64,000 bases of DNA from Candidatus Latescibacterota bacterium (GTDB taxonomy: Bacteria > Latescibacterota > UBA2968): positions 3,552,001 to 3,616,000 of the forward strand of contig OZ244960.1 of NCBI GenBank assembly GCA_965222605.1, written 5' to 3'. Below, piece by piece: positions 21,851-42,357 of this stretch (its first letter is position 1; every line of letters starts with the position of its first letter). Under the pieces are notes generated by a model. The model saw nothing but the letters and a program-made list of their open reading frames with translations, was not told where the DNA came from and did not search any database. A program made the translations under genes and the position numbers.

Positions 21851-22633
21851 TCAGAACTCCTTGCGCGCACAGAAGTAGCCTTCGCTGAGCGATAATCGCA
21901 GGCCGCTGCGCCAGTTGCCTGCAAAACCGTCGGCGGCTATTTCGTGCACTTCCAGTACCGTGTAAGCGCCGTCGAAGAGCATGTCGTCTCGTCGATTGGC
22001 GTCTGCACCCAGGCGCAACAATATGCGGCGTGCGCCATCGCGGTCGCTTTCGAGTATGAGAACGCCCGGTGCTTGCGGGTCTTCACTATCGGGGTCGCCG
22101 ACCTCATAAGCACCAACTGCGCGGAGATTTATGTCTGTAAATCCGTATAATGGCGTCGCTGAATTGCCCAATGAGTCGAGTTCCGACGGTTGTTGGCGCA
22201 GGGTGAGTGTGCCCTGCGCGGAGCGGGCGTCGCTGCCGTTGACTACTTCTATAAGTGTTAGTCGGTATTGCCCAGCTCTGTCCGATAGGGTCACGTTGGG
22301 GTGCAGACTATTGGAAGTTGGCATGCAGGTGGGCGGCAGGCGTTTTACCTCTTTGCCGAAGTTATCGACAAAGATCAGAAAATCGGAGATCCCAATCTCG
22401 CCATTGCCGTCCAGGTCGTATGTTGACTCATACTCCTCTTGATCTTCCTTTGAGCCGAATGCCTCGACAAATAACAAAAAATCGGGAATCCCCACGACCC
22501 CATTTCCGTCAAAGTCCGGGGATGGGGGGCTGTTATTCTGGGAAAAAAGAGACCACGGGAAGAACAAGAGTATCAGGCTCAGCAGACTGGCAGTGCCGAG
22601 CGCGAGTGGGAATATTTTAATAATGCGCAACAT
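21851..22633 (-). CDS. Secreted dockerin-like domain protein with uncharacterised C-terminal domain
   Basis: Signal peptide paralogous to the giant adhesins; dockerin-like pair DFDGNGVVGIPDF / DLDGNGEIGISDF (22352-22516); TAATG overlap with upstream stop. Confidence 0.75.
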   Translation of the reverse strand: MLRIIKIFPLALGTASLLSLILLFFPWSLFSQNNSPPSPDFDGNGVVGIPDFLLFVEAFGSKEDQEEYESTYDLDGNGEIGISDFLIFVDNFGKEVKRLPPTCMPTSNSLHPNVTLSDRAGQYRLTLIEVVNGSDARSAQGTLTLRQQPSELDSLGNSATPLYGFTDINLRAVGAYEVGDPDSEDPQAPGVLILESDRDGARRILLRLGADANRRDDMLFDGAYTVLEVHEIAADGFAGNWRSGLRLSLSEGYFCARKEF

Positions 22634-25600
22634 TAGTTACCCGCTGGCTTTAGATTCAAGGTAATAGGCTCGGGCTTATCTGGCCCTGCGTCGGGGTGTA
22701 TTGTGATGGTACAGTTGATCGGGAGACCCTCAGCCGCTCTTACACCGGTAGTAGAGGAAGAGGAAGGTAGGGTGTACGCGTCGGCCTGCGTGACATCGAC
22801 GCGATAGCCTAAATCGGCGAGCGATTGGATCGTGATCGCGCTCATTGGGTATGGACCTGTCGAGGCTAATCTGGGCGTCATGAGTTCGTTGTCGAGCACA
22901 GATTCCCGCCAGTGACTGTCCCGGTTACCCGCTCCTCCGTACGAGTTCTCCACCGGCACCTTTGCGCCCATATAGCTCGACCCACCTGCGGCATTGAAAG
23001 CCGCAATCGCATTTGCACCCGAGAAATGCGTGTCGGGCGCGGGAACAATGCGGTTGTTATACACGTCGATGGATGGGTTCTTCAGCAGGTTGTGATCATC
23101 CCAGGGTTCAACGCCAAATCCCAGGGTGTGACCTATCTCGTGCAGGATAAGGGCTGCCAATAGTTGGTTAGACATAGTACCCAGGTCGTCCTCGTCAAGT
23201 TCGATGCCAGCTGCGATTGGCAGGGAGGACGGAATGCGCCACAGATCTGGTCCCGCTTGTCCGAGTGTGCCTCCTTCTCCGTCAATTTCCTCAATTTCCA
23301 CATAGATCCTCAGATCATCGACAACTTCGGGAGCGGTGGTCCCTGGATAAATTCTGTTCAAGAAGCTGCGGCTGCTACTGGACAAATGATGGTTGGGAAT
23401 GTCGCCCGCGATGATTTGCTCCCAACGCTGGGTAGCGGTTTCAACTGCTGTCCGGTATTTTGAGGAGATGCTGCCGACAAAGACAAGGTCGATATCGAAG
23501 GAAGGGGTTCCATCTGTGGTCGCTTCGGCAGTCGCGGAGCGAACGCCTATTACGCTGTCGCCACAATCCGTGCCGAGGTATCCGTAATCGGCCTCATAAG
23601 TGGTGCCTGGCTCAAAGAAATCGGAGATCAGGTCTTCCAGCGTTATCGGAAAGGTAGTGGGGATATTGTTATCGTTCGCGATGATAACGCACCCTGCAGC
23701 CCCCCCCGCGATAGGCGTCTTTTGCCGAACTCTGATCCGATAAGCCCGGATTTCGTTGGCTGCAAAATTATCGGTGAATCCAATTGTGAAGAGGTTCCCG
23801 CTGATGCTCAGGGTGGGGGCTGATAAGGTCGGTGTCTGGATATTCGCATCGAAGGTTGTTGAGGTGCTTGCACCCCAGGGATCGGTTGCCGTTACGGTAA
23901 TGGTCGCAGTGCCTGTGGCCACTGGGGTGATCAGGACCACGTTATTGCTCATCTGCACGGTCGCGGCGGCACTGTTGCTCGACGATGCCGTATATCGCAG
24001 GCGAGAATCGTCGGGATCGTCGAAGACGTCATCCACATCTACCCTCTCGACAGCACCCCCTGCGGGAAGCGTTACATCGTCGATGCTGCTGGCTATCGGC
24101 GAGGTATTGGGGATCGTCATCTCGGCCGAAGGAGACCACTCGCTCTCCCCTTCGTCATTGATCGCCCGCACCTGCACTTCATAAGTCTGGTTTCGATTCA
24201 ATTCCTCGATCCGCACCGGCCAGTCCCGGTCCGGGCCCAGGGTGAGGCTTGTGCTTTTGAAGTCGCCGGTGTTCACGACGCGATACTGAATGTCATAGGC
24301 GGTGATGTCAGGACCCGTATTCGTCGGCTGTGTCCGGCCCTGGCTCACCTCGATAATGGGAACTCTAACGCCGGAAAGAACCAGTATTGGTGCTGGTGGC
24401 TGTCCCGGCGGTTCATCTACATCATCTACGACGACGGTTATGGTCTGAGTCGCTGTTCTTTCTCTGGTGCCCGTGCCACTGGTCGCCGTGACCACGATGA
24501 CGTATCTGTTATTGCTCGCTGTGGTAGATGGTCGTTCGTAGTCGGGGGCGGTCACAAAGGTCAATACACCCCCGCTCGTGATCGAGAATAGCGCCTGGGC
24601 AGCACCGCCGGTAATCTCATAGCCCGTGATGTAGTCTCTCGCATCGGCATCTGTGGCGACTACCGTGCCGACCTCGGTTTCGTTTTCGTCTATATCAAAG
24701 ATATTGGCACTGGTGAAGACCGGCGAGTTGTTGGTGCTGACATCTACCTCTGCAATTGTCACGGTTACGTTTTCCGCGGTCACGCTTTGATAGTTTCCAC
24801 CGCTTACTGCGTGGGTCAGCGTGACCGTGTCATCCGTGTTATCTGTGTCGGTCTGTGTGGTGACAGTCACGGCTTGCGAAGTGTTCCAATTGTCCTGTGT
24901 GAATGTTAGTGGCGATGGGGACGCTGAGGCATCAGAACCTGTCGGTACGGTCACGGTGACGGTCACGTCGGCGGTCGGTTGCGAGGTCAGAACCGCTGTG
25001 TACGTGTCGCTGTTGCCCTCCGGTATGGTCAATGCGGTAGGATAGATGTTCACACCGGGTTCTGCATCTATCACTGTCAGTGGCAAGTCGGTGGATTTGA
25101 CGAGCGCGTATCCGCTGTCATCCGGAGGCAAGTCTGGCAATGTTCCGATGTCAGCGGTGACGGCAGCGGTGGTGCCTGTTGTGCGGGAAATTGTGAGGGT
25201 ATTGCTTTGTATGTTGCCCTGAGAGATTTCAATGCTGCTTGCGCCGCCGTCAATGGTGCCATTGACCACATAGAGTGGCAGGAGCATTGCAAAGGGCGCG
25301 CCGGTGTGTGCTTTAGCCCTGAATATACCGGAGGTAACTGATTCCAGGGAAATGGTAATGGGCAGGGGATCAACTGTGTTGCTCTCCAGTTTGAGCGTTG
25401 TCAGTTCGGTCAGTTTAAAAAATACGCTATCGGGCAGGCTGCTGAGGTTGTTATAAGACAGCTTGAGGGTTGTCAGCTCAGTTAGTTTGGAAAATACGCT
25501 ATTGGGCAGGCTGCTGAGGTTGTTGTTATCCAACCAGAGTGTTTTCAGCGCGGTTAGACCAGAAAATGTGTTCGCGTTCAGGCTGCTGAGTTCGTGGCTG

Positions 25601-28600
25601 GTTTGTTGGCCGTTGAGATAGAGTTCTTGAAGCGATGACAGTCCGGAAAAGAGATTTGCCAGCAAGCTGCTGAGTTGGTTTTCGTCCAGACGGAGCGTTT
25701 CAAGTGTTGTCAAGCTGGAAAATACACCCGTTGGCAGGGAGGTTGATTGTAGATCGTTCTCGTGCAGCCAGAGTGTTTCCAGCGCGGTTAGACCCGAAAA
25801 CGCGTTTGCATTCAGGCTGCTGAGGTCGTTTTCCTCCAGGTAGAGTTCTTCCAGTACCGACAGGTTGGAAAAGATATTCGCTGGCAGTGTGGTGAGTGTG
25901 TTTCTATCCAGGTCGAGCCTTTGTAGTGCCGACAGGTTGGAAAAGATATTCGCATCCAGACTGCTGAGGTCGTTGTTATCCAGGCCGAGCCTTTTCAGTA
26001 CCGACAGGTTGGAGAAGATATTCGCTGGTAGGCTGGTGAGTTCGTTGCTGGACAGGTAGAGTTCTTCCAGTGCCGACAGGTTGGAGAAGATATTCGCATC
26101 CAGACTGCTGAGTTTGTTACCGGGTGGAGAAAGTACTTTCAGTGCCGACAGATTGGAGAAGATATTCGCTGGTAGGCTGGTGAGGTCGTTGCTGGACATA
26201 TAGAGTTCTTCCAGTGCCGACAGATTGGAGAAGATATTCGCATTTAGGCTGCTGAGGTCGTTCCTGGATAGAGAAAGTTCTTTCAGTGCCGACAGGTTAG
26301 AGAAGATATTCGCATCCAGAGTGCTGAGGTCGTTGTCATGCAGGTAGAGTATTTCCAGTGCCGACAGATTGGAGAAGATATTCGCATTTAGGCTGCTGAG
26401 GTCGTTGTTGGACAGATAGAGTTTTTTTAGTGCTGTCAGTTCGGAAAATGCGTCCGCGTCCAAAGTACTGAGATCGTTGAAATTCAGGGAGAGTTCTTCC
26501 AGCGCAGTTAGCCCGGAAAAGACGTTATCGGGTAACGTGGTGAGGGAGTTAAAGGTCAGGATGAGGTCTTGCAACGCGATCATCCCGGAAAAGTCGTTGG
26601 CTTTTAGCGTCGAGATGTTTTCGTTAAACAGGGAGAGGCTGGTGATCGCAGACAGATGGTCCGCCGTGACAGCGCCGCAAGTGCTAACAGGCGATGCAGC
26701 TATAATTGCGTCGCGGACCTGTGCGGTGCGGCTGCAGACACTGACGATCTGGACCTGAGTCTCGTTCGCCACCGTCAGTGTCGTGAAGGCGACGGCCGGG
26801 TTATGCGCCCTGTCGCGGATCGGGTTGGTTCCCGGCGTGTAGGCCAGTATTACCGTCTGACCCGATGTTACGGCAGAGGCGAGGGTGAGTTCCACCTCGC
26901 TGCTACGCATCGTAACCGTAGAGACGCTCCTCGCCGTGCCATCTACGGTAACCGCAAAGTCGCTGGTCGCTGGTTTTGAATTGCTGTCGAGCACTTCGCC
27001 GTAGGTCAGTGCCAACTCGTCGTCCTTTACTTCTGCGTCGGTAAGCCCCGGCGCGATGCCATCGACCTTGTGGCTGGACTGATTGGTGCGCGCCGCGTGT
27101 ACCAGGTCCGCGGTTATGGCAGTATTGTGTCTGCGGATGCGCCCGCCGTTGAGCTTGAGGCCATTGGCGTTGATGGTTGCCCCGTCGGTGTCTTCGTCGG
27201 TGTTCTGCACGGTGTATTGGAATACGAGCTGGGTCGTGCCCGAGCCGCTTTTATAGTCGGCCTGGTGTACTGTTTTATCTATCGTGAGGTCAATCTGAGG
27301 TGTGCCTGTGACTGTTACCGCCTCGTTGAAGGTTACGGTGATATCCATTATGTCATTCAGCTTGTAGGTGTTGTTCTGCCCAGAGGCCGGGGCGGAGGTG
27401 AACGCGACGCTCGATACTGTCGGCGCGGTGAGCGTGGTTCCGCTGCCTATATTGGACCACGCGCCCTTCCCTTCGGCGTTCTCTGCCTGCACCTGTATCT
27501 GGTAGGTCGTGCCCGAGCGCAAGCCGGTGATGGTGCGGGTTCGGGAGGGACCAGTGTCTGACCAGTCGGTGAACGCACCACTTATGCGGTATTGCACATG
27601 GTAGTTCGTGATGTCGGGACCGGTGTTTGTCGGCTCGTCCCAACTCACGGTCAGGCTATTCTCCGTCTCGTTGCTCGCCGTGGGTGGATCGGGCTTGCCC
27701 GGCGGTTCGTCCTCATCTTCTACAGTGACAGTTATCTCTTGCGTTACTGTTCGCGCCCGGGTGTCCGCGCCGCCAGTCGCTGTGACCTCTATGATGTATT
27801 CGTTGTTGTTCCCAGAGTCCGCCGGACGCTCGAAGTCCGGATCATCCTGGAAGTGCAATTGATTCGTGTTGGTGATCTCAAACTCGTTCTGGTCGGATCC
27901 GCCGGTGACTTCGTAGCCTGTGATGCGATCGGCTCTGTCGATATCATCGGCAGCCATTCTGCCGACAAATTTGTTATTTTCTTTGACTGTGAAGGCATCG
28001 TCGCTGGTGAAATGGGGCAGTTCGTTCTCGTCGGTGACGGTGATGGTGATGGTCTGCGCTGCGGTCAGTGCGCGGCCACCCGTGCCGCCGGTTACTGTGA
28101 CCTCGACGATGTATGTGTTGTTCCTTCCGCTATCCGTGGGATTCTCAAAGTTGGGGGCGTCCTTGAAGGTCAAAGTGCCTCCGCTATTGATCTCGAGCAG
28201 GTCCCGGTCACTGCCTCCGGTGATGGTGTACCCGGTGATGCCATCGCCGCTATCGACATCCTCGGCATCCACCAGGCCAGCGAACTGGTTATTTTCTTCC
28301 GCCTCGAAGGTCGCATCGCTGATAAATGTGGGCGGTTCGTTGACATCGTTCAGGTCAATGAACACGGGGATGGCACTATCGCCGCTGTGCCCGTCGGTTG
28401 CTTTCACATCCACAAGATAGCTGGGTTGTGTCTCGTAGTCGTAGGTCTGACCCGATTTGGTGCGAATCTGACCGTTGCGTGTGTCAATGGTGAAGGCATC
28501 CTTGTCCTGTCCTTCGAGGCTATAGGCCAACGTGGTGTTCTCGGGGTCAGTTGCACTGATTGGATCACCGATGTTGTGGACGCCTGTGGTGTTTTCGTCA

Positions 28601-31600
28601 AAGCTGCGCGTGGCACTCGATCTATCGGTGAATACTGGCAACTCATTGGCACTGGTGCTTCCCGTGCCCGAGGTGGACCAGTCGCTCCAGCCTTCGGCGT
28701 TGTGCGCTCGCACCTGTGCCTCATAACTCGTGCCCGGGGTCCGACCAGTGATGGTCGCGGTGCGTTCCGTACTGTTGTGAGAATAGGAGGTGAAGCCGCC
28801 GCTGTCGCCTTCGCGGTATTGCACGTTGTAGCGATTGATGTCCGGACCGGTGTTTGTCGGCTCGTCCCAGGTCACAGTCAGGCTGGTCGATGAGGCCGCT
28901 GAGACGCTGGGAGGGTTTGGCGTCTCGGGTGGTTCCTGTTCGTCTATCAGGTTGATTGTCACTTCGATGGTGTTGCTGCCGCCCTGACCGTCTTCTACGC
29001 GCACTGTCACTTCATATCTGTTCTTCTCCTCAAAGTTGTAGATGACGCCCGATAGGGTCTGAAGCTGGTTGCCATCGAGAGAGAAGGAGGCCTGGTCCGT
29101 GCCTTCGAGGCGGTAGGTCAGTGTGCCTCCGTCGCGGTCAGTGGCGGTTATGGGGTTGCCGATGTTGTGGGTGCCAGTCGTGTTCTCTGCTATCCTGCGG
29201 GTAGTACTCGAACCCTCATTAAACGTGGGTGCCTGATTGGCGACAGTGCTCACAGTAACGGATTCGGACCACTGGCTCTGTCCTTCGGGGCTGCGTGCGA
29301 GGACTTGCACTTCGTATTGCGTGTTGGCCGTCAGGCTGGTGATGGTCGTACTTGTACTGCGACTGGTGTGTGGCCAGTCGGTGAATGTGCCACTGCTCTC
29401 CTTATACTGCACATCGTAGTCGTTGATGTTGGGACCGGGATTGGACGGGGCTGTCCAACGTATGGATAGGCTATTCAGTGTTGAGGCCGTCACCGAGGGA
29501 CGGTCAGGTCTGTCCGGTTGTTCGTTGTCGTCATCGGTTATGTCAATTGTCACTGTGATGGTCGTACGTCCGCCCTGATCGTCCGCTGCTTCTACCGTTA
29601 CCGAATAGCGATTTCGCGCCTCAAAGTTGTAATCAACGCCGGTTTGGGTCTGAAGTTGGCCGTTGCTTGAGAGGATGGCGAATTGATCTGTATCGCCGCC
29701 TGTAAGACGGTAGCTCACTGTGCGGCCTTCGGGGTCGGTCGCGCTTATCGGGGTACCGATGTCCTGGCTACCAGGGGTGTTCTCGGCGAGGCTGCGCGTT
29801 GGTGAGGTTTCGTCGAATACTGGCCGCTGGTTGGCACTGGTGGTGCCAAAGCCTGAGGAGGACCACAGGCTCGGTCCTTCGTCATTGTGCGCCTTCACCT
29901 GCACTTCGTAGCGCGTGTTCACGTCAAGGTCTGTGATGGTTGTGGTTATACTGGTGTTATTGTGCGGATGGGGGATGAAGCTGCCGCTGCCTGTTCGATA
30001 TTGTACGTCGTAGTCGTAGATGTCGGGACCGGTGTTTGTCGGCTCGGTCCATGTCACGGTCAGGCTGGTCGATGAGGCTGGCGCTACTTGTGGTCTGGCC
30101 GGTCTCTCGGGCGGTTCGTTTACATCGCCCACATAGATGGTCACGTCAATGGTGGCTGTGCCACCGCGATTGTCGTCTGCGGTTATTGTCACGTCATAGC
30201 TATTCTTTAGCGCTTCGTGGTCATAAGTGATGCCTGACCGGGTGCGAAGCTGACCATTGCTTGCGTTGATGGTGAAGGAATCGGCATCGTCCCCGCTGAG
30301 GCGGTAGGTCAGGCGGTCACGGTCATCATCAGTGGCGCTGACCGGGTGCTGGATGTTTTGATTGGGTGCCGTGTTCTCAGCCACACTGCGGGAGGTGTTC
30401 GCACCGTCGTTGAAGGTGGGAGCCTGATTAGGGCCCGGTGGAGGAGGGGGTGGCTGTGGTTGTGGTGGCTGTGGTTGTGGTGGCTGTGGTCGTGGTGGTT
30501 GTGGTCGTGGTGGCGGGGACGTCCCTCCTCCGCCCCCTCCCCCTCCTCCTCCGCCACTCAGCGCAGAGGTCGTCCACTCTCCAGACTCAGACCACGCACT
30601 CGTGCCTTCCTCGTTGTGCGCGCGCACCTGTATCGCATAGCGCGTGCTTGAAAATAGTCCCCTCAGGCGCACCGTCCGTCCTGTGCCGTCATAATTTGCA
30701 TCGATGAACTCATCACTGTCGGCTTGGCGGTATTGCACATCGTAGTCGGTGATCTCAGGACCGGTGTTTGAAGGTTCTGTCCAGATTACCGTCAGGGTTG
30801 TGGGCGCAATCGCCGAGACACGCGGTGGGGCAGGTTGCATAGGGGGTTCATCGATGTCGTTGATGGCAATACCGACAGCAAGGCTGGCCTCACCACCTTC
30901 GCCATCACTGACATAGACGATGAGGGAATAGTTGTCCTTCTGCTCAAAGTTATACGTCCCTTTTGTCTGAATGTGTCCTGTGCTCTCGTCTATGGCAAAG
31001 CTGTCTGCATCGTCCCCGCTGAGGCGATAGGTGAGGGTATCGCCATCGCCATCGGTTGCTAAGATGGGGTCGCCTATGGGCTGTCCGGAGGGGGTGTTCT
31101 CATCTACGGAGCGCGTCACGGGAGGTTCTGACGTGAAGACAGGTGCGCGGTTGACGACTTTGCCAAAGCTATCGACGAAGATCAGAAAATCGGGAATCCC
31201 AATCTCGCCATTGACATCCAGATCATATTTTGCCTTATACGCCTCTTGACCTTTTTGAGAACCAAACGCATCGACAAAGAGCAAAAAGTCCGGGATGCCC
31301 ACCGTTCCACTCCTGTCAAAGTCCGGAGAAGGCGGTTTGGCAATCCTCAAGGTAATGCTCAGGTCCATTGGTACGGTCTCAGTCTGTCCCTCTCGCACAA
31401 GTCTTGCACGCACCAATCGTATGTCTGTGCCTGAAAACGCATCGCTCGTGCGAAAGCGAATGGTGCCTATAAGACCGCTGATTGCATTGCCAGCCGATAA
31501 GGTTATCCCGATATTTGCAAAATCCTTTCCCGTAAGCGCAGAGGTGCCAGATACGATATTCGACCGCTTAAATCCTTCGTAAGCAACCTGCGTGGGATCG

Positions 31601-31881: not shown

Positions 31882-32384
31882 AACTGATGTTACGCAGTCG
31901 TGCATTTATAGTGTTATATTCAAAGCAATGACTTAATCTGTTGGCACTATGATCATATTCAAAATCGCATGGTCAAGGGACTGAACCTCCTCAATTGTGT
32001 CTATCACTCAGACCCAAATATATATGCCAATTTGAGTTCGTGCAAATACTGATTTGCGTATAAGGTGTTATTTTTAATAAAGATACAAAACAAAAATCCA
32101 GACGAAATTTCGTGCTATTGGATGATATATCACCCAATAGCACGAGTAGTCTGGCTAATATTCTGATTATTAACAGGTTGTTATAAATTAAATAAGCGAT
32201 ATAATCCATCTTAAGACGATATATCGCCCATAGTAAAGATATTTTTCATCCTTACATGCTTTCTGTCCAATCCAAAATGCATGTCCCACTGTGCGATACA
32301 AGCAGATATTTCAGAACACCTTTCTCTTCTTCGGGGAGGGTGCTTGAATGACGAGGTAGATACAGTCGCTGCGTAACATCAGTT
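31882..32384. other. 503-bp AT-rich segment bounded by perfect 16-bp inverted repeats (invertible promoter or MITE)
   Basis: aactgatgttacgcag (31882-31897) and ctgcgtaacatcagtt (32369-32384); central near-perfect 36-bp palindrome 32110-32145. Confidence 0.65.
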
Positions 32385-32387
32385 ATG

Positions 32388-32561: not shown

Positions 32562-35500
32562 TTAATCCGTCAGATCCGGCACGGTCACCGAGACCAGTGT
32601 ACTGTGCGTCGCTTCCCCACCCGCGACCACGGCCGCCACCTGGTAGGTATAGGTCGCGCCTGCGGTCACATCGGTATCGGTGTATTGCAAGTCACTGGTT
32701 TCCTCCGCGAGGGTCTCGTCGGTGGTGCCGTCGTAGCGTGTCAGAGTATAGGTGATGTCCGGTGCCGAGGTCCAGAAGCTCGCATCCACCGCGGTCCAAC
32801 TCAGGGCAACCTGGGCTGTCGTGGCTGTCGCGGTCAGCGTTGGTCCTTCCCGAAGCTGGTAGCCGAACTCCTGCCATGTCGCCTGCCCATCGCCGTTGAA
32901 GTCCACCGCCAGAACCGGATACTGCGTAGCCGTCCCAAAGGCCCAGGGATCGTCAGTCATGCCATCGCTGTCCAGGTCCCGGTTCCAGGTCTGATAAATC
33001 CCGCTGTAGTTCGTGGGTTCCTGCAACGCCGTTGTGGTCTGGCCTTCGCCAGGGGCCCTACCAGGCCCGGAGGTGTTCAGGTCATAGTAGCTGGCGACGA
33101 CGGTGCCCAGGTCGATGTTGACCAGTCCGCCGACATAGATATCTCCCGAGATGCGGCCCGTGGCGTAGCTGGCGGCGACGGTGCTATTGTTGCCGTCGAT
33201 CCCGACCATTATGCCAACATTATTACCTCCCGAGACGCGGCCCGTGGTGTAGCAGGCAGTGATGGTGCCTCTGTGTCTTCCGACGAGTCCGCCGACCACG
33301 GTACGTCCTGACACGTGGCCCGTGGCGTAGCTGGCGGCGATGGGACCGTAGTTGTTTCCCACCAGTCCGCCGACATAGCCATCCCCCGAGACGGAGCGAG
33401 TGGTATAACTGTTGGTAATGGCATCGTAATTTCTTCCGACGAGTCCGCCGACCATATCATTCCCCGAGACGGAGACGGAGACATAACTGTCAGTGATGGG
33501 ACCGTAGTTGTCCCCGACGAGTCCGCCGGTCATACCATCCCCCGAGACGGAGCCGGTGACGTAACAGTTGGTGATGATGCCGCGGTTATCCCCGACCAAC
33601 CCGCCGAGATAGATTTTTCCCGAAAGATGGACGTTAGTCAGCCCGACGTTTCGGATGACACTGACCGCGCCAGTGTAGCCGAAAAATCCGAAGACATTTT
33701 TGCGTGTATCAAAAAAAAGGTTGGCGATGGTGTGTCCATTGCCCTCGAAGGTCGCAAGGAACGGGTTGCGCCTGATATCCGGGCCACTCCCGGCACCGCC
33801 GATGGGCACCCAGCCTGCGCCATCGTTCCAATACGTGTCGCCAGCGTCGGCATCGCCGCTTCCGTTGGTGTCGAAGTCCAGGTCCGCGCTCAGTTCATAT
33901 CCCGTGCATCCGAGACCGCCGCAAGCTACCTGATCGGTAAACGCCTGGTCATACGCGGCCCTCCCGCTATCTGTGGGTATTCCGTCCCCATTCAGGTCGT
34001 GACGGACTGCATTCAATTGCGCGAGCGTCGTGATCTCGATGAGGCCGTCATCGTCGGTGTCATAGTCGATCGCGGTTATCGGCAGTACTGTTACAGCGAA
34101 CGGCTGCGCCGCGCTCGTGTTCGATCCGTCTTTGTCAATCGCCGTCACTGTGACGGTTGCCTGTCCCTCGGCTACTGGCGTGATCGTCACCCGTGTTCCC
34201 GACAGGCTGACCGTCGCCACGGCTGGTGCCGATGAGGTCGCGCCGTAGGTCAGCGCATTGCCCTCCGGGTCATGGAACGCCCCCGCCACTTCCACGCTTC
34301 CTGAGACGTCACCCACGCGCAGCGTGCGGTCCGCCAGCTTCCCCACCGGGACCGCTGGCTGATTTTCGCTGATCAGTGTGGTCGTGCCCTGGCCTGAATT
34401 GGACCATTTGCTCGTCCCTTCGGCGTTCTTTGCCCACACCCGCACCTGATACATCGTATTTGGATTCAAGCCTGTTAGCGTCGTGGTCGTGCCGGTGCCG
34501 TTGTAATTGACATCGGTGAATGCGCCACTGGTGCCTTGCCGGTATTGCACGTCGTAGTCGGTAATGTCAGGCCCGGTGTTAGTCGGCTCGGTCCAGGTCA
34601 CGGTCAGGCTATTTTCCCTCTCATTGCTCACCACAGGCCGATCGGGTTTGCCCGGCGGTTCGTTTTTGTCGGTGACTGTGATGGTGATGGTCTGCGCTGC
34701 GGTCAGTGCGCGGCCTCCCGTGCCACCGGTCGCTGTGACCACGACGATGTATTCATTGTTGCGCCCGGCGTCCGTGGGATTCTCGAAGTTGGAGACATCC
34801 TTGAAGATCAATATACTCTCGTTGGTGAATTCGATCTCGTTCCGGTCGGCACCGCCGGTAATGGTGTAGCCGGTGATGTCGTCGCCGTTATCGACATCCT
34901 CGGCATTCACCCGATTGATGTACTGGTAATTTTCCGGTATCTTGAAGGTCTCAATGCTGGTAAATGTGGGGGCTTCGTTCACATCGGTCAGGTTAATCGT
35001 CACTTCGATGGTGTTGCTGCCGCCCTGACCATCTTCTACGCGCACCGTTACCTCATATCTGTCCTTCTTCTCGTAGTCGTAGGTGACGCCCGCCCTGGTC
35101 TGAAGCTGGTTGCCATCGATTGCGAAGGAGGTCCGGTCCGTCCCCTCAAGGCTGTAGGTCAGCGTCCCCCCGTCGCTGTCTGTGGCAGTGACCGGGTTGC
35201 CGATGTTATGTGTCCCGGTCGTGTTCTCTGCTATACGGTGGGTAATACTCGAACCCTCATTAAACGTGGGAGCTTGATTGACGACAGTGCTCACAGTAAC
35301 GGATTCGGACCACTGGCTCTGTCCTTCGGGACTACGTGCCAGTACCTGCACCTCATAGGACGTGTTGGCATTCAAGCTGGTGATGGTCGTGCTCGTACCG
35401 GGTCCATTGTGTTGCCACTCGGCGAACGTGCCGCCGCTCTCCCTATATTGCACGTCGTAGTCTTTGATGTTGGGGCCGGTGTTGGCAGGTGCGGTCCAGC

Positions 35501-37310
35501 GTATGGAGAGATTATTCAGCGTTGAGGCTGTTACCGAGGGACGGTCGGGTCTTTCTGGCCGTTCGTTGTCGTCGTCGGTTATGTTTATTGTCACTGTGAT
35601 GGTCGCACGCCCGCCCTGATCGTCCGCTGCTTCTACCGTCACCGAATAGCGATTTTTCTCTTCATAGTTGTAATCTACGCCGGTCTGTGTGCGAAGTTGG
35701 CCGTTGTTGGTGTCGATGGTGAATTGATCCGTGTCGCCACCTGCAAGGCGGTAGGTCACGGTGGTGCCTTCGGGATCGGTGGCGGTTATTGAGTTGCCGA
35801 TGTCCTGGATGCCTGTCGTGTTTTCGGCGAGGCTGCGGGTGGTGCTTGAGCCGTCGTCGAAGGTCGGGGGCTTATTACTCGGCGGAGGAGGGGGAGAAGG
35901 GGGAGGCTGTGACGTACTACCACCACTACCACCGCCACCACTGCTACCACTACTACCACCACTACCACCGCCACCACTGCTACCACCACTACCACCGCCA
36001 CCACCCGGTACTATCAATAGCTCAGAGGTCTTCCACTCACCCGACTCAGACCATTCACTCGTGCCTTCTTCGTTAGTCGCGCGCACCTGTATCGCATAGC
36101 GCGTGCTTGAAAATAGTCCCCTCAGGCGCACCGTCCGTCCTGTGCCATCATAATTTGCATCGATGAACTCATCACTGTCGGCTTGGCGGTATTGCACATC
36201 GTAGTCGGTGATCTCAGGACCTGTGTTGGAAGGTTCTGTCCAGATTACCGTCAGGGTTGTGGACGCGATCGCCGAGACACGCGGTGGGGCAGGCTGTCCT
36301 GGGGGTTCATCGATGTCGTTGATGGCAATACCTACAACAAGGCTGGCTTCACCACCTTCGCCATCACTCACATGGACTGTGACGGAATACTTATCCTGCT
36401 GCTCAAAGTTGTATGTCCCTTTTGTCTGAATGTGTCCTGCGTTCTCCTCAATGGCAAAGCTATCGGCGTCGGCACCGCTGAGGCGATAGGTGAGGGTATC
36501 GCCATCGCCATCGGTTGCTAAGATGGGGTCGCCTATGGGCTGTCCGGAGGGGGTGTTCTCATCTACGGAGCGCGTCACGGGAGGTTCTGACGTGAAGACA
36601 GGTGCGCGGTTGACGACTTTGCCAAAGCTATCGACGAAGATCAGAAAATCGGGGATCCCAATCTCGCCATTGACATCCAGATCATATTTTGCCTCATACG
36701 CCTCTTGACCTTTTCGGGAACCAAAGGCATCGACAAAGAGCAAAAAGTCCGGGATGCCCACCGTTCCACTCCTGTCAAAGTCCGGAGAAGGGGGTTTGGC
36801 AATCCTCAAGGTAATGCTCAGGTCCATTGGTACGGTCTCAGTCTGTCCCTCTCGCACAAGTCTTGCACGCACCAATCGTATGTCTGTGCCTGAAAACGCA
36901 TCGCTCGTGCGAAAGCGAATGGTGCCTATAAGACCACTGATTGCAGTTCCGTCGGATAAGGTTATCCCGATATTTGCAAAGTCCTTTCCCGTAAGCGCAG
37001 AGGTGCCAGATACGATATTCGACCGCTTAAATCCTTCGTAAGCAACCTGCGTGGGATCGAATTCAAAGCGCAGGGAGAGATCGCTTGCAGCCGCAATATC
37101 TGTGCCGAAGATTTGAATGGGAATCGTGCGATTGGGAAAGACATCGAGAGAGGAGACTGTCTGGTCGCCTTCAGAATTATCTAAGTCCAGAGATAGGGAA
37201 AAGCCGCTGGTCTGGGTGGATAGGGACCATGGGAATAGCAAGAGCAGAAGGCTCAGTAAACTGACGGTGACGAGCGCGAGTGGGAAGATTGTAACGCGGG
37301 AGGGAATCAT
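32562..37310 (-). CDS. Giant secreted protein (1582 aa): cohesin-like, dockerin-like, cadherin/FN3, Ig-like, GLUG repeats, FN3
   Basis: Same head as the 3072-aa protein; Gly/Ser linker; VGGLVGxN GLUG repeats. Confidence 0.88.
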   Translation of the reverse strand: MIPSRVTIFPLALVTVSLLSLLLLLFPWSLSTQTSGFSLSLDLDNSEGDQTVSSLDVFPNRTIPIQIFGTDIAAASDLSLRFEFDPTQVAYEGFKRSNIVSGTSALTGKDFANIGITLSDGTAISGLIGTIRFRTSDAFSGTDIRLVRARLVREGQTETVPMDLSITLRIAKPPSPDFDRSGTVGIPDFLLFVDAFGSRKGQEAYEAKYDLDVNGEIGIPDFLIFVDSFGKVVNRAPVFTSEPPVTRSVDENTPSGQPIGDPILATDGDGDTLTYRLSGADADSFAIEENAGHIQTKGTYNFEQQDKYSVTVHVSDGEGGEASLVVGIAINDIDEPPGQPAPPRVSAIASTTLTVIWTEPSNTGPEITDYDVQYRQADSDEFIDANYDGTGRTVRLRGLFSSTRYAIQVRATNEEGTSEWSESGEWKTSELLIVPGGGGGSGGSSGGGGSGGSSGSSGGGGSGGSTSQPPPSPPPPPSNKPPTFDDGSSTTRSLAENTTGIQDIGNSITATDPEGTTVTYRLAGGDTDQFTIDTNNGQLRTQTGVDYNYEEKNRYSVTVEAADDQGGRATITVTINITDDDNERPERPDRPSVTASTLNNLSIRWTAPANTGPNIKDYDVQYRESGGTFAEWQHNGPGTSTTITSLNANTSYEVQVLARSPEGQSQWSESVTVSTVVNQAPTFNEGSSITHRIAENTTGTHNIGNPVTATDSDGGTLTYSLEGTDRTSFAIDGNQLQTRAGVTYDYEKKDRYEVTVRVEDGQGGSNTIEVTINLTDVNEAPTFTSIETFKIPENYQYINRVNAEDVDNGDDITGYTITGGADRNEIEFTNESILIFKDVSNFENPTDAGRNNEYIVVVTATGGTGGRALTAAQTITITVTDKNEPPGKPDRPVVSNERENSLTVTWTEPTNTGPDITDYDVQYRQGTSGAFTDVNYNGTGTTTTLTGLNPNTMYQVRVWAKNAEGTSKWSNSGQGTTTLISENQPAVPVGKLADRTLRVGDVSGSVEVAGAFHDPEGNALTYGATSSAPAVATVSLSGTRVTITPVAEGQATVTVTAIDKDGSNTSAAQPFAVTVLPITAIDYDTDDDGLIEITTLAQLNAVRHDLNGDGIPTDSGRAAYDQAFTDQVACGGLGCTGYELSADLDFDTNGSGDADAGDTYWNDGAGWVPIGGAGSGPDIRRNPFLATFEGNGHTIANLFFDTRKNVFGFFGYTGAVSVIRNVGLTNVHLSGKIYLGGLVGDNRGIITNCYVTGSVSGDGMTGGLVGDNYGPITDSYVSVSVSGNDMVGGLVGRNYDAITNSYTTRSVSGDGYVGGLVGNNYGPIAASYATGHVSGRTVVGGLVGRHRGTITACYTTGRVSGGNNVGIMVGIDGNNSTVAASYATGRISGDIYVGGLVNIDLGTVVASYYDLNTSGPGRAPGEGQTTTALQEPTNYSGIYQTWNRDLDSDGMTDDPWAFGTATQYPVLAVDFNGDGQATWQEFGYQLREGPTLTATATTAQVALSWTAVDASFWTSAPDITYTLTRYDGTTDETLAEETSDLQYTDTDVTAGATYTYQVAAVVAGGEATHSTLVSVTVPDLTD

Positions 37311-37386: not shown

Positions 37387-39808
37387 CTATTGATGATTCA
37401 TCGTTTTGCCGAAGCTCTCCACAAAGAGCAGAAAATCGCCAAACCCAATCTCGCCATTGACATTCAGATCGTATTTTATCTCATACTTCTCTTTATCATA
37501 CTGGGACCCAAACACATCGACAAAGAGCAAGAAGTCCGGAAAATCCACAACCCCATTGCCATTAAAATCAACAGAAAGGGGAATCGTTTGCTCGACAATG
37601 GCCGCGTCCGACATCTCGCTCCCGCCAGTGTCATCCGCCTCGCTGAAGAAAGAAACTGAATTATGGTTATGCTCTCCCTTCTGTGTAAAACCGTTGGCGC
37701 CGATTTTGCGAACCAGGACCGGGAGGGATATGCCCCTCGGTAACCCACCTCCCTCACTATAGTCATGAAGCATGTCAGTATAGCTATGATTGTGGGTGAA
37801 CCTGTGATAATGTTCGGTGTCTGTTAGTACACCACCTATTTCAACAGAATAACCATTAGTATGCGTATGATACAGTAGATGATTATGCCCATCCCTATGC
37901 TCCACCACATGACTGGAACCTTCTTCCCCGTTAACCCAAAAATGCACATGTCTTTCTCCTATGACATGATTGCCGTGCTCTCTAAACTGCTGTGCGTGGT
38001 TCGCGTGCTCATGCTCGCAGACAACCAGACCGGGACATTCCTCATTTGGGTTAGGTGAGACATGTCCATGCACGTAATGATGCGTATGCATATAGCCTTG
38101 CCCATCATCATGTTCAAAGCTATGATTATGGAGTATCCTGATCTGTGGATCAGCAGGATCATTGGCAAATAGGTCGTCAACTTCGTCAGAGGAGACAGCG
38201 GCCAGACGCCCTACGCCGTCGTGATTGTACATAACTGACCCGCCGTTGGGTTGGTTTTCTTCATGCCACATCCCCAAATGCCTCTGGCGAGCCTGCTCCA
38301 TCGTTTCGCCAGTATTGAGTGTAACCATGTGGCTATGATCCATTCTGTGCGTATGATCCACATAGTCATCATGACTATGAATCATTGTGTGCTCATGATG
38401 CGAAACCTCTTGCACCTGCACCGAAGAAGTCACGTCCGAAGAGGCAGCGCGCGTGATGGTCACAATGCAAGTCTGCGTGGTCACATCATCCTGCGCTGTC
38501 ACTTTTACCTTAATTATGTTGGTACCCACTACCAGATTCACCTGAAAACCTTCAGTGCTCTCATCCGCATCCGTCAGCGTGTTGTCGTTCTCGTCCAAAT
38601 ACACTAACGTAGCCGACCCATGATTTTTCGTCACCGTCACTGTAATCTGGGACACCTCATTCCCAACCGTCGCCGTATAGTTCGTCGTGCTCACCGAGAA
38701 AACCGGATTAAGTGTCCCCTCACTCAGGCTCAGACTACTCAGCATCACATCTGCGGAGCCGTTGCGCGTGACGGTGATAGTATAAGTTTGCGTGGTCACA
38801 CCATCCTGCGCCGTCACTTTCACTTTAATCGGGTTGGGACCCACTACCAGATTCACCTGAAGACCGGTAGTATTCCCATCCTCATCTGTCAGCGTGTTGT
38901 CGTTTACGTCCAGATACTCAATCGCAGCCGCCTCATTGTTGGTCTCCGCCGTCACTGTAATCTGAGATACCGCATTCCCCACCGTCGCCGTGTAGATCGT
39001 CGTGCCCGCTGAGAAAACTGGCGCGAGTGTCCCAGCACTCAGGCTCAGACCACTCAGCGTCGCGTCCGTGGAAACAGCGCGCGTGACGGTGATAGTATAA
39101 GTCTTTGCTTTATCCTCATTCTGCGACGTCACTTTCACCTTAATCTTGTTGGTGCCCGTCACCAGATTCACCTGAAAACCTTCAGTGTCCGCATCCGCAT
39201 CCGTCAGCGTGTTATTGCTCCCGTCGCGATACGCAATCGTGGCCGCCTCATGATTTTTCGTCGCCGTCACTGTAATCTGGGACACCGCATTCTCAACTGA
39301 CGCCGTATAGTCCGTCTCACTCGAATCGAAAACCGGATCAAGTTGTCCCCGCACTAATACTCAGACTACTCAGCGTCGCATCTGAGGAGCCGCGCGTGAT
39401 AATAATGTAGTAAGTCTGCGTCGTTGTCTCGTCCTGCGCCGTCACCTTCACAATGAGCGTGTTGCGGCCCGCCACCAGATTCATCTGAAAATCGTCAGTA
39501 TTCACATCCGCATCCGTCAGTTCGTTGCTGTTCCTGTCGAGATACGCAATCGTGGCCGACCCATTGTTGGTCGTCGCCGTCACTGTAATCTGGGACACCG
39601 CATACTCAACTGACGCTGAGTAGAATGTCGTGCTCGGAGCGAAGTCCCGATCAAATGTCCCCGGACTCAGGCTCAAACTACTCAGCGTCGCATCTGAGGA
39701 GAGGAGAGCCGCCGCTTCCGCGGTTTTGTGGCTCCCGAACAACGCGGCGAGCGCCAGCAGGCACACCACCGCGCGGCGGGTGTGAGCAAATAAAGGTCTG
39801 TTGTTCAT
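37387..39808 (-). pseudogene. Secreted protein with 4 cadherin-like beta-sandwich repeats, His-rich region and C-terminal dockerin-like domain; 1-bp frameshift near 39343
   Basis: SP MNNRPLF...LLALAALFG with AAGGAG SD; DATLSxLSLSxG repeats; gggacaacttgatccg versus paralogous repeat gggacacttaatccg shows one extra A. Confidence 0.75.
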
Positions 39809-40193
39809 GGTATAAAACTCCTTCGGGACAGGCTCTGTGCTGTCCCGAATATCCACCGCTGTCTAACCTTATCCCTCAAGAGCTATTGACGATCAATTCA
39901 CCGTTTTGCCGAAGCTCTCCACAAAGAGCAGAAAATCGGGGATCCCTATCTCGCCATTGACATCCAGATCGTATTTCTTCTCATACTTCTCTTCACCATC
40001 CCGAGACCCAAACACATCGACAAAGAGCAAAAAGTCGGGGATATCCACAACCCCATTGCCATTAAAATCAGCAGCAAGGGGAATCGCTTGCTCGACAATG
40101 CCCGCATCCACCTGCTCGGGATCCTCCGGGGAGGTCTCCGCATCGTTGTCGTTGTCGAGCGCGCCGGGGTCCGGCCCTGTGCGCGTCTCACCC

Positions 40194-40433
40194 TCATCGG
40201 CTGAATTCTCCACGACTGAGACGCGGGCAGTGCTCTCATCGGCTGAATTCTCCACGACTGAGACGCGGGCAGTGCCTTCATCGGCTGAATTCTCCACGAC
40301 TGAGACGCGGGCAGTGCCTTCATCGGCTGAATTCTCCACGACTGAGACGCGGGCAGTGCCTTCATCGGCTGGATTTTCCACGACTGAGACGCGGGCAGTG
40401 CCCTCATTGGCTGAATTCTCAGTATCTGAGACG
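40194..40433 (-). repeat. 42-bp tandem repeat, ~5.7 copies (ENSADEGTARVSVV)
   Basis: Units start at 40194, 40236, 40278, 40320, 40362, 40404; no spacers. Confidence 0.9.
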
Positions 40434-40487
40434 CCAACGGCCTGCAGCGAGCCCAGATTCCCACTGCCGCTTCCCGCCTCACTACTA

Positions 40488-41388
40488 ACCTTTGGTGCTA
40501 GTAGATAAGAAGTTGTAAGTCGCCAGAAGTTTACCTATGCTGAATGAGTTAGCACCTCATTCATTCACAGCAGGGAGGTAAACTTCATGACGACTGAAAT
40601 GCTGATCATTGACCTGTTCTGTCGGGTAGATGATCAAACGCAAGACCTTGAGAAACATCCTCAAGCCAAGCTCTATCCCAGCGAAGTCATCACGTTGGCC
40701 TTGCTTTTTGCGATTAAAGGGGTGGGCAATCGCGCCTATTATGATTGGCTGATAAACGATTGGCAGCACCTGTTTCCTAACTTACCTCATCGCACGCGCT
40801 TGTTTCGCCTCTTTTTAAGGCATCAACACGCCACAAGCCGATTTTTAGCCGAAAAGAGCGTGTTGGGCATCATTGATAGCTATGGCATTGAGTTGATTCA
40901 TCCGATCCGAGAAGGCAGAAGTCCTGCTCAGATCGGGAAGAAAGGCAAATCGAATTATCGCTGGATTGTCGGTGGCAAGCTCTGTCTGTTGATCAATCAA
41001 TGGGGTCTCATCGTGGATTGGGACTGTCAGACAGCTAATGTTCACGATACCACCTTCCACCATCTCATCAAGCAGGTGCAATCAGACATGGTCGTCTTTG
41101 CCGATGTCGGCTTTCAAAAAGCGCAAGACAACCCAGAAAACTTAAAAATCTGTCCGCGTGGCACTTGGAATGAGCGCATGGTGGTTGAAACCATCTTATC
41201 TATGATGACGCTCGTGTGGCATTTTAAGAAAGTCATGCATCGGGTCTGGAGCTATTTTGCAATGCGATTGGCTTTTACCATGGCCGCCTTCAATATCTTG
41301 GTACAATGGCAGGGCTTTAAACCCGATGAAGATGGGTTCATTAACCTTGCCATCGCACACTTCAGAATATAACACTAGCACCAAAGGT
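40488..41388 (+). mobile_element. IS982-like insertion sequence
   Basis: Perfect 15-bp IR acctttggtgctagt / actagcaccaaaggt; 5-bp TSD TACTA at 40483-40487 and 41389-41393. Confidence 0.88.
40587..41372 (+). CDS. DDE transposase (IS982-like)
   Basis: LYPSEVITL, IIDSYGIE, FADVGF, ERMVVET. Confidence 0.85.
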   Translation: MTTEMLIIDLFCRVDDQTQDLEKHPQAKLYPSEVITLALLFAIKGVGNRAYYDWLINDWQHLFPNLPHRTRLFRLFLRHQHATSRFLAEKSVLGIIDSYGIELIHPIREGRSPAQIGKKGKSNYRWIVGGKLCLLINQWGLIVDWDCQTANVHDTTFHHLIKQVQSDMVVFADVGFQKAQDNPENLKICPRGTWNERMVVETILSMMTLVWHFKKVMHRVWSYFAMRLAFTMAAFNILVQWQGFKPDEDGFINLAIAHFRI

Positions 41389-42357
41389 TACTATGGACAC
41401 GGCCACCACCGTCATCATACGGATCCCCATTACTATACTCAAAAGCCATATAAGGCGACAGGGACAGTGAAACCTCAAAAGGCTTACTTGAATGTCCCTC
41501 CCAACCATGGTCATGCGGTTCATTGCCATACAGATGCTTGTGATAGACGGTATGCGTATGGAAATCACGATTGGGACTATGAGCATGCTTATGCCACCTA
41601 CTATGAGAATGACGAGCAAGAGGCCGATCCTCAGGATCGCGAGCAGCAGGAGATCGCAGTGCAACACCCTGATGTGCATTTTGATCCTCATTGGAAGGAA
41701 AGGAGGATAAAGGAAGAGGTTGATCAGCACCTTTCATATGCTGATAATGGACAAGATTATGCTGATGACTCACATAATCATCATGAAAGTGTACAAGAGC
41801 ATGCATATGGAACCATGGATGAGTATGCGAAACGTTTGGTGGTCGAGGCTGCTCAACAACCGTGTGTGGCTCACTATCGTCTATAACATGACCGCCATGT
41901 GCAAAAACATCCAAAATCATAAAAAACAACGCTGCCATCGTTATAAAGTATCTCATTTTTCCCTCCAGGTGGTTTGTAGTAATCGCCAGCAGAGTCATCC
42001 CGATCAGCGTCACCAAAATCAAAAAAATTTTCAGCGTTTCATTGTTTTGCCCTCCTGTTTTCTGGAACGGTTAAGAAATACATTTGTAACCACGTTTGGT
42101 GCGAGACATACTGAAGCGGTCAGCGGTCAACAAAACCTGTTCAGATACACATACGTTTGTAATTGCAAATCCAAAAATGTAATGTGTCACTTCAAAACGG
42201 CCTATCAGTAAATTTGAAGGTCATACCTTATGCAGTTATACATACGCTTGTATTCATACAAAAATAAAAAATAAAAGTCAACAGGAGAATTAGCAAAAAT
42301 TAAGAGATTGTTTCATTGCCCTAATTTTAATGAAAAGTTTTGACTTCCAAATAGATC

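Follow-up and report, generated by a model that had tools for sequence, protein, structure and literature searches.

The window analysed here, a stretch of 64,000 nucleotides from the genome of a Candidatus Latescibacterota bacterium, contains a cluster of genes, A to F, all of which lie on the minus strand as judged from the listing of open reading frames (ORFs) and their translation (Table 1). Genes A to E encode the same 55-residue module, which is a dockerin, and in the two giant proteins, B and C, this module is preceded by a domain that is a divergent cohesin. The cluster is, on balance, likely to be one of 18 loci of a lineage-specific, genome-wide and non-cellulosomal cohesin-dockerin repertoire.

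The start of gene A and the stop of gene B overlap by 1 nt. Translation of B probably begins at the 19th codon of its ORF (31851), as suggested by comparison with C. The Pfam matches of B include LRR_8 (1.3e-85), fn3 (2e-80), Cadherin (1.1e-50) and Peptidase_M8 (2.5e-9), and the M8-like domain is the only enzyme-like domain that Pfam recognizes inside the island. No glycoside hydrolase (GH) family occurs among the Pfam matches of the island proteins, in agreement with an earlier note on this DNA that was made from the sequence alone. Gene D is present as two frames: the upstream ORF encodes a signal peptide and the first Cadherin-like (PF12733) repeat, and the downstream ORF encodes three further PF12733 repeats, a His-rich region and the C-terminal dockerin. 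E and F lie on either side of an insertion sequence (IS). The listed ORF of F (41375-42022) extends 15 nt inside the IS and then meets a stop codon.

Table 1. Positions of the features of the cluster and its surroundings in the window (aa, amino acids)
Feature	Position	Strand	Description
Gene A	21851..22633	-	260 aa; signal peptide, N-terminal dockerin, 166-aa eight-stranded beta-barrel
Dockerin of A	22352..22516	-	aa 40-94 of 260; PF00404 20.7 bits (protein), 23.5 bits (genome scan, above cut-off)
Gene B	22633..31905	-	3090 aa; signal peptide, cohesin, dockerin, cadherin/fn3 repeats, LRR block, C-terminal M8-like domain
Leishmanolysin-like (M8) metallopeptidase region of B	22774..23229	-	aa 2893-3044; Pfam; HEIGH motif in translation
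Dockerin of B	31159..31323	-	aa 195-249 of 3090; PF00404 16.6 bits for the isolated module
Cohesin-like domain of B	31324..31755	-	AlphaFold2 fold match and homologues above the Pfam Cohesin cut-off
Gene C	32562..37310	-	1582 aa; signal peptide, cohesin, dockerin, cadherin/fn3/PKD repeats, GLUG-motif region, fn3-like C-terminal end
Dockerin of C	36618..36782	-	aa 177-231 of 1582; PF00404 15.3 bits
Cohesin-like domain of C	36783..37214	-	93% identical to the cohesin-like domain of B
Gene D, two frames	37387..39856	-	5' ORF 39338-39856; 3' ORF 37387-39354 (655 aa)
Dockerin of D	37405..37569	-	aa 596-650 of 655; PF00404 20.8 bits (19.9 in genome scan)
His-rich region of D	37570..38469	-	13.3% His
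E, 3' remnant of His-rich gene	39893..40486	-	listed ORF 39893-40381, 162 aa; tandem repeats and C-terminal dockerin
Dockerin of E	39905..40069	-	aa 105-159 of 162; PF00404 22.3 bits (24.0 in genome scan)
IS, 903 bp	40487..41389	+	DDE transposase ORF 40587-41372 (PF13612/PF01609); terminal inverted repeats; 3-bp target duplication
F, 5' remnant of His-rich gene	41390..41956	-	signal peptide and His-rich region; 15.3% His in mature part
ORF with PRiA4_ORF3-like and LexA/MarR-type DNA-binding domains	11281..12114
GH2-like ORF and two sulfatase genes	16696..21696		no dockerin
FGE-type sulfatase-maturation gene	44740..45501		no dockerin
Second transposase gene (DDE_Tnp_1_4)	49923..51287		unrelated to the 903-bp IS
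ORF with AAA_15/AAA_21 ATPase and DUF3696	52562..54070		within a low-GC stretch (GC 0.435 at 52001-54000)

The earlier note had reported one 165-bp module in five co-oriented secreted proteins. All five intervals were recovered at the positions given there and translate on the minus strand into 55-residue modules with two loops each; these lie towards the N-terminus of A, B and C and at the C-terminus of D and E, as described. The co-orientation of the five genes holds as well, but the description of all five products as secreted does not, because the signal peptide of D is on a separate ORF and E has none of its own. Pairwise identity between the modules is 67-96% for protein and 76-97% for DNA, far above chance. 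Each module contains two loops of the pattern D-x-D/N-x-x-G-x-(V/I)-x-x-x-D, and each loop is followed by a helix-forming DFLxF stretch. In the AlphaFold2 model of the N-terminal region (the head) the dockerin helices are at residues 154-164 and 187-197.

Dockerin_1 (PF00404) is the best or second-best Pfam family for every copy in the window, with hmmscan scores of 15.3-22.3 bits against a gathering cut-off of 22.9 bits. A six-frame scan of the genome with PF00404 gave 92 matches at E<=0.1; 64 exceeded the cut-off, 59 of them by their own score. E and A were above it, D reached 19.9 bits, and B and C were not among the matches. The GC-type dockerin model of NCBIfam also matches the window module below its cut-off. 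When a profile made from a head alignment of 28 sequences was compared with the Protein Data Bank (PDB), the top matches were dockerin-containing chains (2y3n_B, 2.3e-9; 4u3s_B, 2e-8; 4wi0_B, 2.8e-8; 5k39_B, 1.9e-6), and EF-hand proteins ranked behind them, at 3e-6 and weaker. The 109 dockerin copies of the genome fit one 56-position profile. The 55-residue module is a dockerin with two intact calcium-loop/helix repeats, as had been proposed.

The beta domain of about 145 residues that lies directly N-terminal of the dockerin in both giants had been likened to a cohesin. The AlphaFold2 model of the head has a mean predicted local distance difference test score (pLDDT) of 83.3 and a predicted template-modelling score of 0.67, with pLDDT blocks of 65-96 over the cohesin domain. 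When this model was searched with Foldseek, cohesin entries made up 37 of the 38 rows shown, the best being 4fl4_I (E 4e-9); the chain 4uyp_A, which contains a single cohesin, was matched at E 2e-8 with a target-normalised TM score of 0.67. VIA alignment of the cohesin model of B gave a best Z of 14.9, to 2vo8, with a deviation of 2.4 A over 128 residues. The first 33 VIA rows are all cohesins, with Z from 14.9 to 11.7, and span model residues 1-141; the first row that is not a cohesin is the pilin BcpA, at Z 11.7.

Homologues of the domain lead to the same family. A phmmer search of 1.84 billion representatives returned 290 relatives at E<=1e-3. Fifteen relatives (E 5.5e-200 to 3.2e-13) were scanned, and nine of them exceed the Pfam cut-off for Cohesin (PF00963, 24.1 bits) with 27.1-75.8 bits, the highest score being that of P0001. 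Within the genome itself, 6 of the 15 full-length paralogues overlap PF00963 matches, and paralogues at 49-55% identity score 12.8-23.8 bits. Membership of the B and C domains in the Cohesin family follows from transitive homology through these Pfam-recognized relatives. The beta domain that precedes the dockerin in B and C is, as judged from models and homologues, a divergent cohesin. Absence of a cohesin fold, which the earlier note had named as a ground for rejecting its proposal, is thus not what the analysis found.

It has been considered that the two modules never pair, the dockerin-like EF-hand pair being a calcium-dependent stabilizer or an anchor to glycans or the cell wall and the cohesin-like sandwich a spacer. 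Such an arrangement would suit the EF-hand proteins that are the next-best matches of the dockerin module, as well as the pilin-type sandwiches, whose best Z is 3.2 below that of the best cohesin. It is nevertheless highly improbable, given that homology of the sequences to true cohesins and dockerins is established and that both types of module co-expand in the lineage, where their fusion or proximity is much more frequent than expected by chance.

The repertoire was counted in the stop-to-stop ORFs of the 6.34-Mb single-contig genome with iterated hidden Markov models built from the window modules. This census found 109 ORFs with a dockerin and 16 with a head-type cohesin, 15 ORFs having both, so that 94 dockerin ORFs are without a cohesin. 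All cohesin-bearing proteins of the genome together number about 19. The dockerin is C-terminal in 44 of the 109 ORFs, N-terminal in 31, part of a cohesin-dockerin head in 15, on a short ORF in 14 and internal in 5. The 18 clusters contain 63 of the 109 dockerin ORFs, and 11 of the 15 head genes cluster with genes that encode a dockerin only. By these counts the island is not a self-contained system.

In all 15 heads of the genome a signal peptide, the cohesin, a linker of about five residues and the dockerin follow one another at the N-terminus, and each of the 16 head-type cohesin ORFs has a single cohesin copy. The arrangement extends to relatives elsewhere. Among the 150 best representatives of the family, the cohesin is followed by a dockerin within 20 residues in 112 and the reverse order does not occur. 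The cassette is found at N-termini, internally and at C-termini, with the first cohesin starting by residue 80 in 114 of the 150. Fifteen of these representatives carry two to seven tandem cohesins and at most one dockerin. The cohesin-dockerin cassette is the rule across the wider family.

Head-type cohesins were sought in 151 genomes of the phylum, the host genome included, and were present in 59: in 28 of 29 genomes of the host's own family, 18 of 19 of a sister family, 10 of 64 of a third family and both genomes of a fourth, with none in the 36 genomes of all other families. One genome of the same genus has at least five cohesins within one frame of 1835 residues. The closest named relatives by head region are Latescibacteria or Latescibacterota metagenome-assembled genomes (MAGs), 52-84% identical.

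The fixed order within the cassette could be read as the mark of a closed unit, in which the dockerin occupies the cohesin of its own chain, self-capped and perhaps released by competition, or in which the cohesin buttresses the dockerin in the manner of an X module. The five-residue linker, the absence of the reverse order among the representatives, the conservation of the order at whichever end of the protein the cassette lies, and the dockerin in cis to each of the 15 full-length head cohesins are all in line with this reading. It does not account for the 94 dockerins of the genome that have no adjacent beta domain, nor for tandem arrays of up to seven cohesins with only one dockerin. Lone dockerins and cohesin arrays show that each module exists in its own right, as would be the case for a receptor and its ligand. 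An obligate intramolecular dyad is therefore disfavoured, and we regard the closed unit as unlikely.

The proteins that carry the dockerins were classified by Pfam at E<=1e-5 or 1e-8. The scan covered 108 of the 109 ORFs, one fragment of 50 residues being left out, and the tally was read from the tables. Leucine-rich repeats (LRR) are found in 19 proteins, He_PIG Ig-like domains in 15 and WD40 repeats in 11, and several dockerin giants have cadherin, fn3 and CARDB repeats. Leishmanolysin-like (M8) domains occur in 4 proteins, always at the C-terminus of giants and B among them, and peptidases M10 and S8 in 1 each. The remaining matches comprise Redoxin (3 proteins), DUF4955 (4, two of which are also pectate-lyase-like), glucose/sorbosone dehydrogenase-like (2), arylsulfotransferase (1) and, in one protein each, GH113, chondroitinase-B-like, PL8 lyase, sulfatase, FGE-type and BNR_4. 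The GH113, chondroitinase-B-like, PL8, sulfatase, BNR_4 and DUF4955 proteins form the carbohydrate-active or allied part of the cargo. About 27 dockerin ORFs outside the window have no family beyond the dockerin. As far as domain assignments can tell, the cargo is mostly adhesin-like, eukaryote-like repeat proteins, with enzymes as a minority that would point to proteins and sulfated glycans as their targets.

These enzymes raise the question of a cellulosome-like degradative complex for sulfated glycans and proteins of a host or of algae, with the repeat proteins as substrate-binding modules. The chondroitinase-B-like, PL8, GH113, sulfatase, FGE-type, M8, M10, S8 and DUF4955/pectate-lyase-like domains among the dockerin proteins would fit such a complex, as would the sulfatases and the GH2-like gene that flank the island and the statement in PMC7081726, made with reference to Farag 2017, that 'extracellular, cellulosome-affiliated enzymes' occur in Latescibacteria. 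On the other side, enzymes make up the smaller part of the cargo, none is encoded in the island apart from the M8-like domain of B, and the genome has no multi-cohesin scaffoldin, all of its 16 head-type cohesin ORFs being single-copy. A degradative complex is very unlikely on these grounds. The proposal in the earlier note that the system is not a cellulosome agrees with the lack of a multi-cohesin scaffoldin in the genome and with the mainly non-GH cargo.

The barrel protein A has two paralogues of its C-terminal domain in the genome, 88-91% identical and each encoded directly downstream of another giant head gene. The three barrel copies (window 21854-22351; genome 997275-998090 and 1339933-1340733) each have a dockerin and each follow a giant cohesin-dockerin gene. 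The AlphaFold2 model of A has a pLDDT of 89.4, and its C-terminal domain is an eight-stranded barrel with two conserved cysteines. The barrel gave no Foldseek match at E<=0.001; in a wide VIA search it matched de novo designed barrels at Z 9.0-9.7 and natural barrels (Cap15, avidins, lipocalins, OmpA-like) at Z of 7.7 or less. Since these matches are generic, no function is assigned to it. Its homologues number 133, and for the 120 that were listed no Pfam family had been precomputed over this domain; most of the homologues stand alone, at 190-220 residues. The alignment consensus, and most of nine inspected N-termini of these stand-alone homologues, contain a lipobox-like cysteine. A has a signal peptide and a dockerin where its relatives have a lipid anchor, which fits the dockerin as a device for retention.

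Two further arrangements recur in the genome. A redoxin/AhpC-TSA protein with a short-linker subtype of dockerin adjoins an LRR protein with a cohesin-dockerin head three times (698850-702028, 2781135-2784025 and 3390738-3395552). The He_PIG Ig-like proteins, most of which are small, are encoded in arrays of six genes at 778470-792574 and nine at 3455919-3474723. In the dockerin subtype of these arrays, His replaces Phe in the first helix (SDHLLF), and several of the ORFs are short or truncated.

The cohesin-dockerin proteins would need a point of attachment to the cell, and candidates come from the type IX secretion system (T9SS). Only six matches to Por_Secre_tail (PF18962) were found in the genome, and two of these are on proteins that also have a dockerin and a Pfam-level cohesin. 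These two proteins, of 1336 and 1564 residues, are encoded adjacent to each other and carry the dockerin first and then the cohesin, which scores 35.5 and 37.1 bits with PF00963. Both belong to a group of three adjacent T9SS-tail genes at genome positions 2627287-2641102, and both have at least 1000 residues without a named domain before the C-terminal FlgD_ig/Por_Secre_tail. The genome has a homologue of the SprA translocon (630 bits summed). GldK was matched only below its cut-off, the best match (FGE-sulfatase family) being about 2 kb from the T9SS-tail genes; GldM was not found in the genome, but the same search matched no control genome and is uninformative. The two dockerin-cohesin proteins with T9SS tails are the most likely candidates for outer-membrane anchors.

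Two genes of the island are interrupted. In D the two ORFs overlap at 39338-39354, and there a 1-nt frameshift interrupts a Cadherin-like repeat and leaves the signal peptide on the upstream ORF. The frameshifted sequence was found with zero differences in 340-nt contigs of public sequencing runs from two studies (X1 record 2, X3 record 19), so it is not peculiar to this assembly, with the proviso that run X1 may be the source sample of the assembly. An assembly error is improbable; more likely the gene is a genuine pseudogene, or the shift a programmed or tolerated one.

The 903-bp IS between E and F occurs 11 times in the genome; 10 of these copies are 100% identical and the remaining one 95%, and the identical copies indicate recent activity. 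Together with its target duplication the IS measures 906 bp (3 x 302). Since F and E also share one frame, they were once a single gene. The ancestral gene would have encoded a signal peptide, a His-rich region, about six 14-residue repeats and a dockerin. The repeats, about six tandem 42-nt units at about 40190-40440, encode the unit VVENSADEGTARVS within the acidic linker in front of the E dockerin; one contig of run X3 has a 6-nt deletion at 40143. F and the His-rich region of D have short collinear His motifs in common (E 2e-4). The contigs of X1 and X3 stop 26-29 nt beyond the ends of the IS, none bridging it under a 31-letter rule. One X3 contig (depth 3, side 25) links 40482 to 41389 and skips 906 nt, which hints weakly at an allele that the IS does not interrupt. 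A, D and E had been proposed as dockerin-only cargo; two of these three genes are broken, D being frameshifted and the E/F gene split by the IS. Capture of metal by the His-rich proteins, also suggested earlier, would be a guess from their composition of 13-15% His.

Small shares of the window's words, 0.07-0.15, were found in runs labelled sponge, coral or marine metagenome. The matches of run X10 to the window consist only of dockerin-coding bits and a relative of the IS, with less than 99% likeness, and no habitat is assigned from them. No RNA run is listed among the runs that hold parts of the window.

Taken together, these observations make a non-cellulosomal docking system, with B and C as adaptors and a T9SS-anchored base, a fairly probable reading by analogy with known scaffoldins. 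The dockerins would be calcium-dependent plugs that retain secreted proteins on cohesin sockets by docking in trans. At the base of the hierarchy, the T9SS-anchored dockerin-cohesin proteins would sit on the outer membrane; the cohesin-dockerin proteins B and C would come next, as monovalent adaptor scaffoldins whose dockerin fixes them to another cohesin; and dockerin-only partners would follow. The cohesin of each giant would accept one such partner, for instance barrel protein A, which is co-transcribed, or the His-rich proteins as they were when still whole. The outcome would be a cell surface that displays adhesin-like and eukaryote-like repeat proteins together with a few enzymes, and not a machine for cellulose degradation. 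That the two modules act as a receptor-ligand pair is suggested by the many dockerin ORFs that lack a cohesin of their own and by the cohesin arrays of the relatives.

A different use of the same parts was put forward in the earlier note, according to which the head cohesin binds the dockerin of the next head, so that the giants would polymerize into surface filaments capped or decorated by dockerin-only proteins. Every head does have one socket and one plug. The dockerins of the giants, of A and of E are moreover of one subtype, with GIPDFL in both repeats, and for this reason one cohesin specificity could accept both kinds. Within each dockerin the two repeats show near symmetry, as is seen in dockerins with a dual binding mode. 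The relatives that have several cohesins and a single dockerin, on the other hand, resemble scaffoldins and not polymer subunits. In characterized scaffoldins, the dockerin in cis differs in specificity from the cohesins of the same chain, which avoids self-binding and counts against such filaments. Polymerization appears improbable, and a hierarchy like that of adaptor scaffoldins is at least as likely.

Several points weigh against the hierarchical docking system and its wide extent. The binding of cohesin to dockerin is inferred, and no computation yielded it. A complex prediction for the B cohesin, the A dockerin and two calcium ions scored 0.00 against a mark of 0.32 and, its controls not having been run, counts neither way. 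The cohesin domains of B and C match no Pfam family even at E<=10, a cohesin-only profile gave a single PDB match, a cohesin, at the weak E of 0.12, and the dockerins of B and C are below the Pfam cut-off, at 15-17 bits. Each head-type cohesin here has a dockerin five residues away, so that cis occupation or a structural dyad may be the actual state. Neither B nor C has a T9SS tail, and Pfam finds Por_Secre_tail in no island protein. The locus may be decaying, as two dockerin-only genes are inactivated. Finally, the census was obtained with home-made hidden Markov models on stop-to-stop ORFs and not on curated gene calls.

A broader reading, which we put forward tentatively and hold to be possible but doubtful, is that the dockerin now serves, in one order of the Latescibacterota, as a general tag for surface retention that replaces lipid anchors, as in the barrel protein A with its lipobox-bearing stand-alone homologues, and that is carried by about 110 exported proteins per genome. 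It includes the supposition, held with the same reserve, that most LRR, WD40, cadherin and fn3 proteins are so tagged and displayed through T9SS-anchored cohesins and cohesin-dockerin adaptors. Such an assembly would be a cohesin-dockerin 'adhesome' directed at a eukaryotic host or at particles, and not an enzyme complex.

The surroundings of the island contain further genes, listed at the end of Table 1. The GH2-like ORF with two sulfatase genes and the FGE-type sulfatase-maturation gene lie on its two flanks. Further out are an ORF that joins a PRiA4_ORF3-like domain to a LexA/MarR-type DNA-binding domain, a second transposase gene and, in a low-GC stretch, an ORF with an AAA_15/AAA_21 ATPase and DUF3696. 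Architectures of the AAA_15/AAA_21 and DUF3696-like type are common among anti-phage defence genes.

Few known protein-protein interactions are as strong as the pairing of cohesin with dockerin, which has found wide use in synthetic biology. To our knowledge, the natural roles of such pairs outside cellulosomes are almost unstudied, and we know of no settled account of how bacterial eukaryote-like repeat proteins are displayed. The lineage offers a large natural set of divergent pairs within one genome, with its roughly 19 cohesin-bearing proteins and its dockerins in visible subtypes. The fixed cassette would allow the logics of adaptor, polymer and self-cap to be told apart by simple binding assays. 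The system suggests how uncultured and possibly host-associated bacteria may mount eukaryote-like repeat proteins on the cell surface, and the dockerins, if orthogonal in specificity, could add to the toolbox for designer protein assemblies.

The system shares with the cellulosomal pairs, as in CipA of Clostridium thermocellum and its enzymes, the folds of both modules, the duplicated calcium-loop/helix dockerin and an excess of plugs over sockets. It differs from the cellulosome in several respects. The genome has no multi-cohesin scaffoldin with a carbohydrate-binding module, multi-cohesin proteins being found only in relatives, and the cargo is mostly of the LRR, WD40, cadherin/fn3 and Ig-like kinds instead of plant-cell-wall enzymes. 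The host is a MAG-type genome of the Latescibacterota and not a Firmicute. The candidate anchors carry T9SS tails, whereas SLH or sortase anchors were not seen, no search having been aimed at them.

The closest structural matches are the cohesins of Clostridium perfringens glycoside hydrolases (2vo8, 2jh2 and 2w1n), with Z of 14.9, 14.4 and 14.3 and deviations of 2.3-2.6 A over 124-128 residues. Judging from the titles of these entries, they too are modules outside cellulose degradation. The non-cellulosomal modules of C. perfringens join secreted enzymes of a Gram-positive pathogen. The sequence identity to the C. perfringens cohesins is, however, only 8-13%, and here the cohesin is N-terminal on giant adhesin-like proteins and fused to a dockerin.

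The type II dyad of X module and dockerin (2b59, 4fl4 and 3kcp) likewise places a beta-sandwich N-terminal of a dockerin, with only a very short linker between the two fused modules, and chains with cohesin, X module and dockerin top the Foldseek list of the head model. Unlike the X module, the sandwich described here is a homologue of cohesins and also occurs in tandem arrays without dockerins. The cohesin of Archaeoglobus fulgidus (2xdh) matches the cohesin model of B at a VIA Z of 12.1. Non-cellulosomal cohesin and dockerin modules were reportedly catalogued across the three domains of life by Peer et al. in 2009.

Other reports concern Gram-negative and uncultured lineages. The 'planctosome' hypothesis for freshwater Planctomycetes, as set out in the sections of PMC6461901 that we cite, proposes a non-cellulosomal cohesin/dockerin complex with an adaptor that bears both modules and with dockerin-bearing peptidases. 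The Gram-negative lineage and the doubly equipped adaptor are common to both systems. The adaptor of the planctosome is described there in the order dockerin, HYR, cohesin and with few components, whereas the present fusion of cohesin and dockerin is direct, has the opposite order and belongs to a repertoire of about 109 proteins in which eukaryote-like repeats predominate. A giant ORF of Omnitrophota with nine dockerins has been proposed, in the relevant part of PMC10066038, to be an adhesin.

For the Latescibacterota themselves, a paper on sponge-associated members lists LRR, WD40, NHL and FN3 proteins, while the words dockerin, cohesin and cellulosome are absent from the main text of that paper (PMC12993501), and Youssef 2015 (PMC4454575) contains no mention of cellulosome, dockerin, cohesin or scaffoldin. 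A literature search, with supplements outside its range, found no report of a fixed cohesin-dockerin cassette, of dockerins in such numbers or of eukaryote-like proteins in Latescibacterota that bear a dockerin tag. Beyond the second-hand remark in PMC7081726, nothing turned up in it that deals with dockerins in sponge symbionts or in this phylum. Non-cellulosomal cohesin-dockerin systems are already known; what is new in the present one is its scale, its cargo and the fixed cohesin-dockerin cassette.

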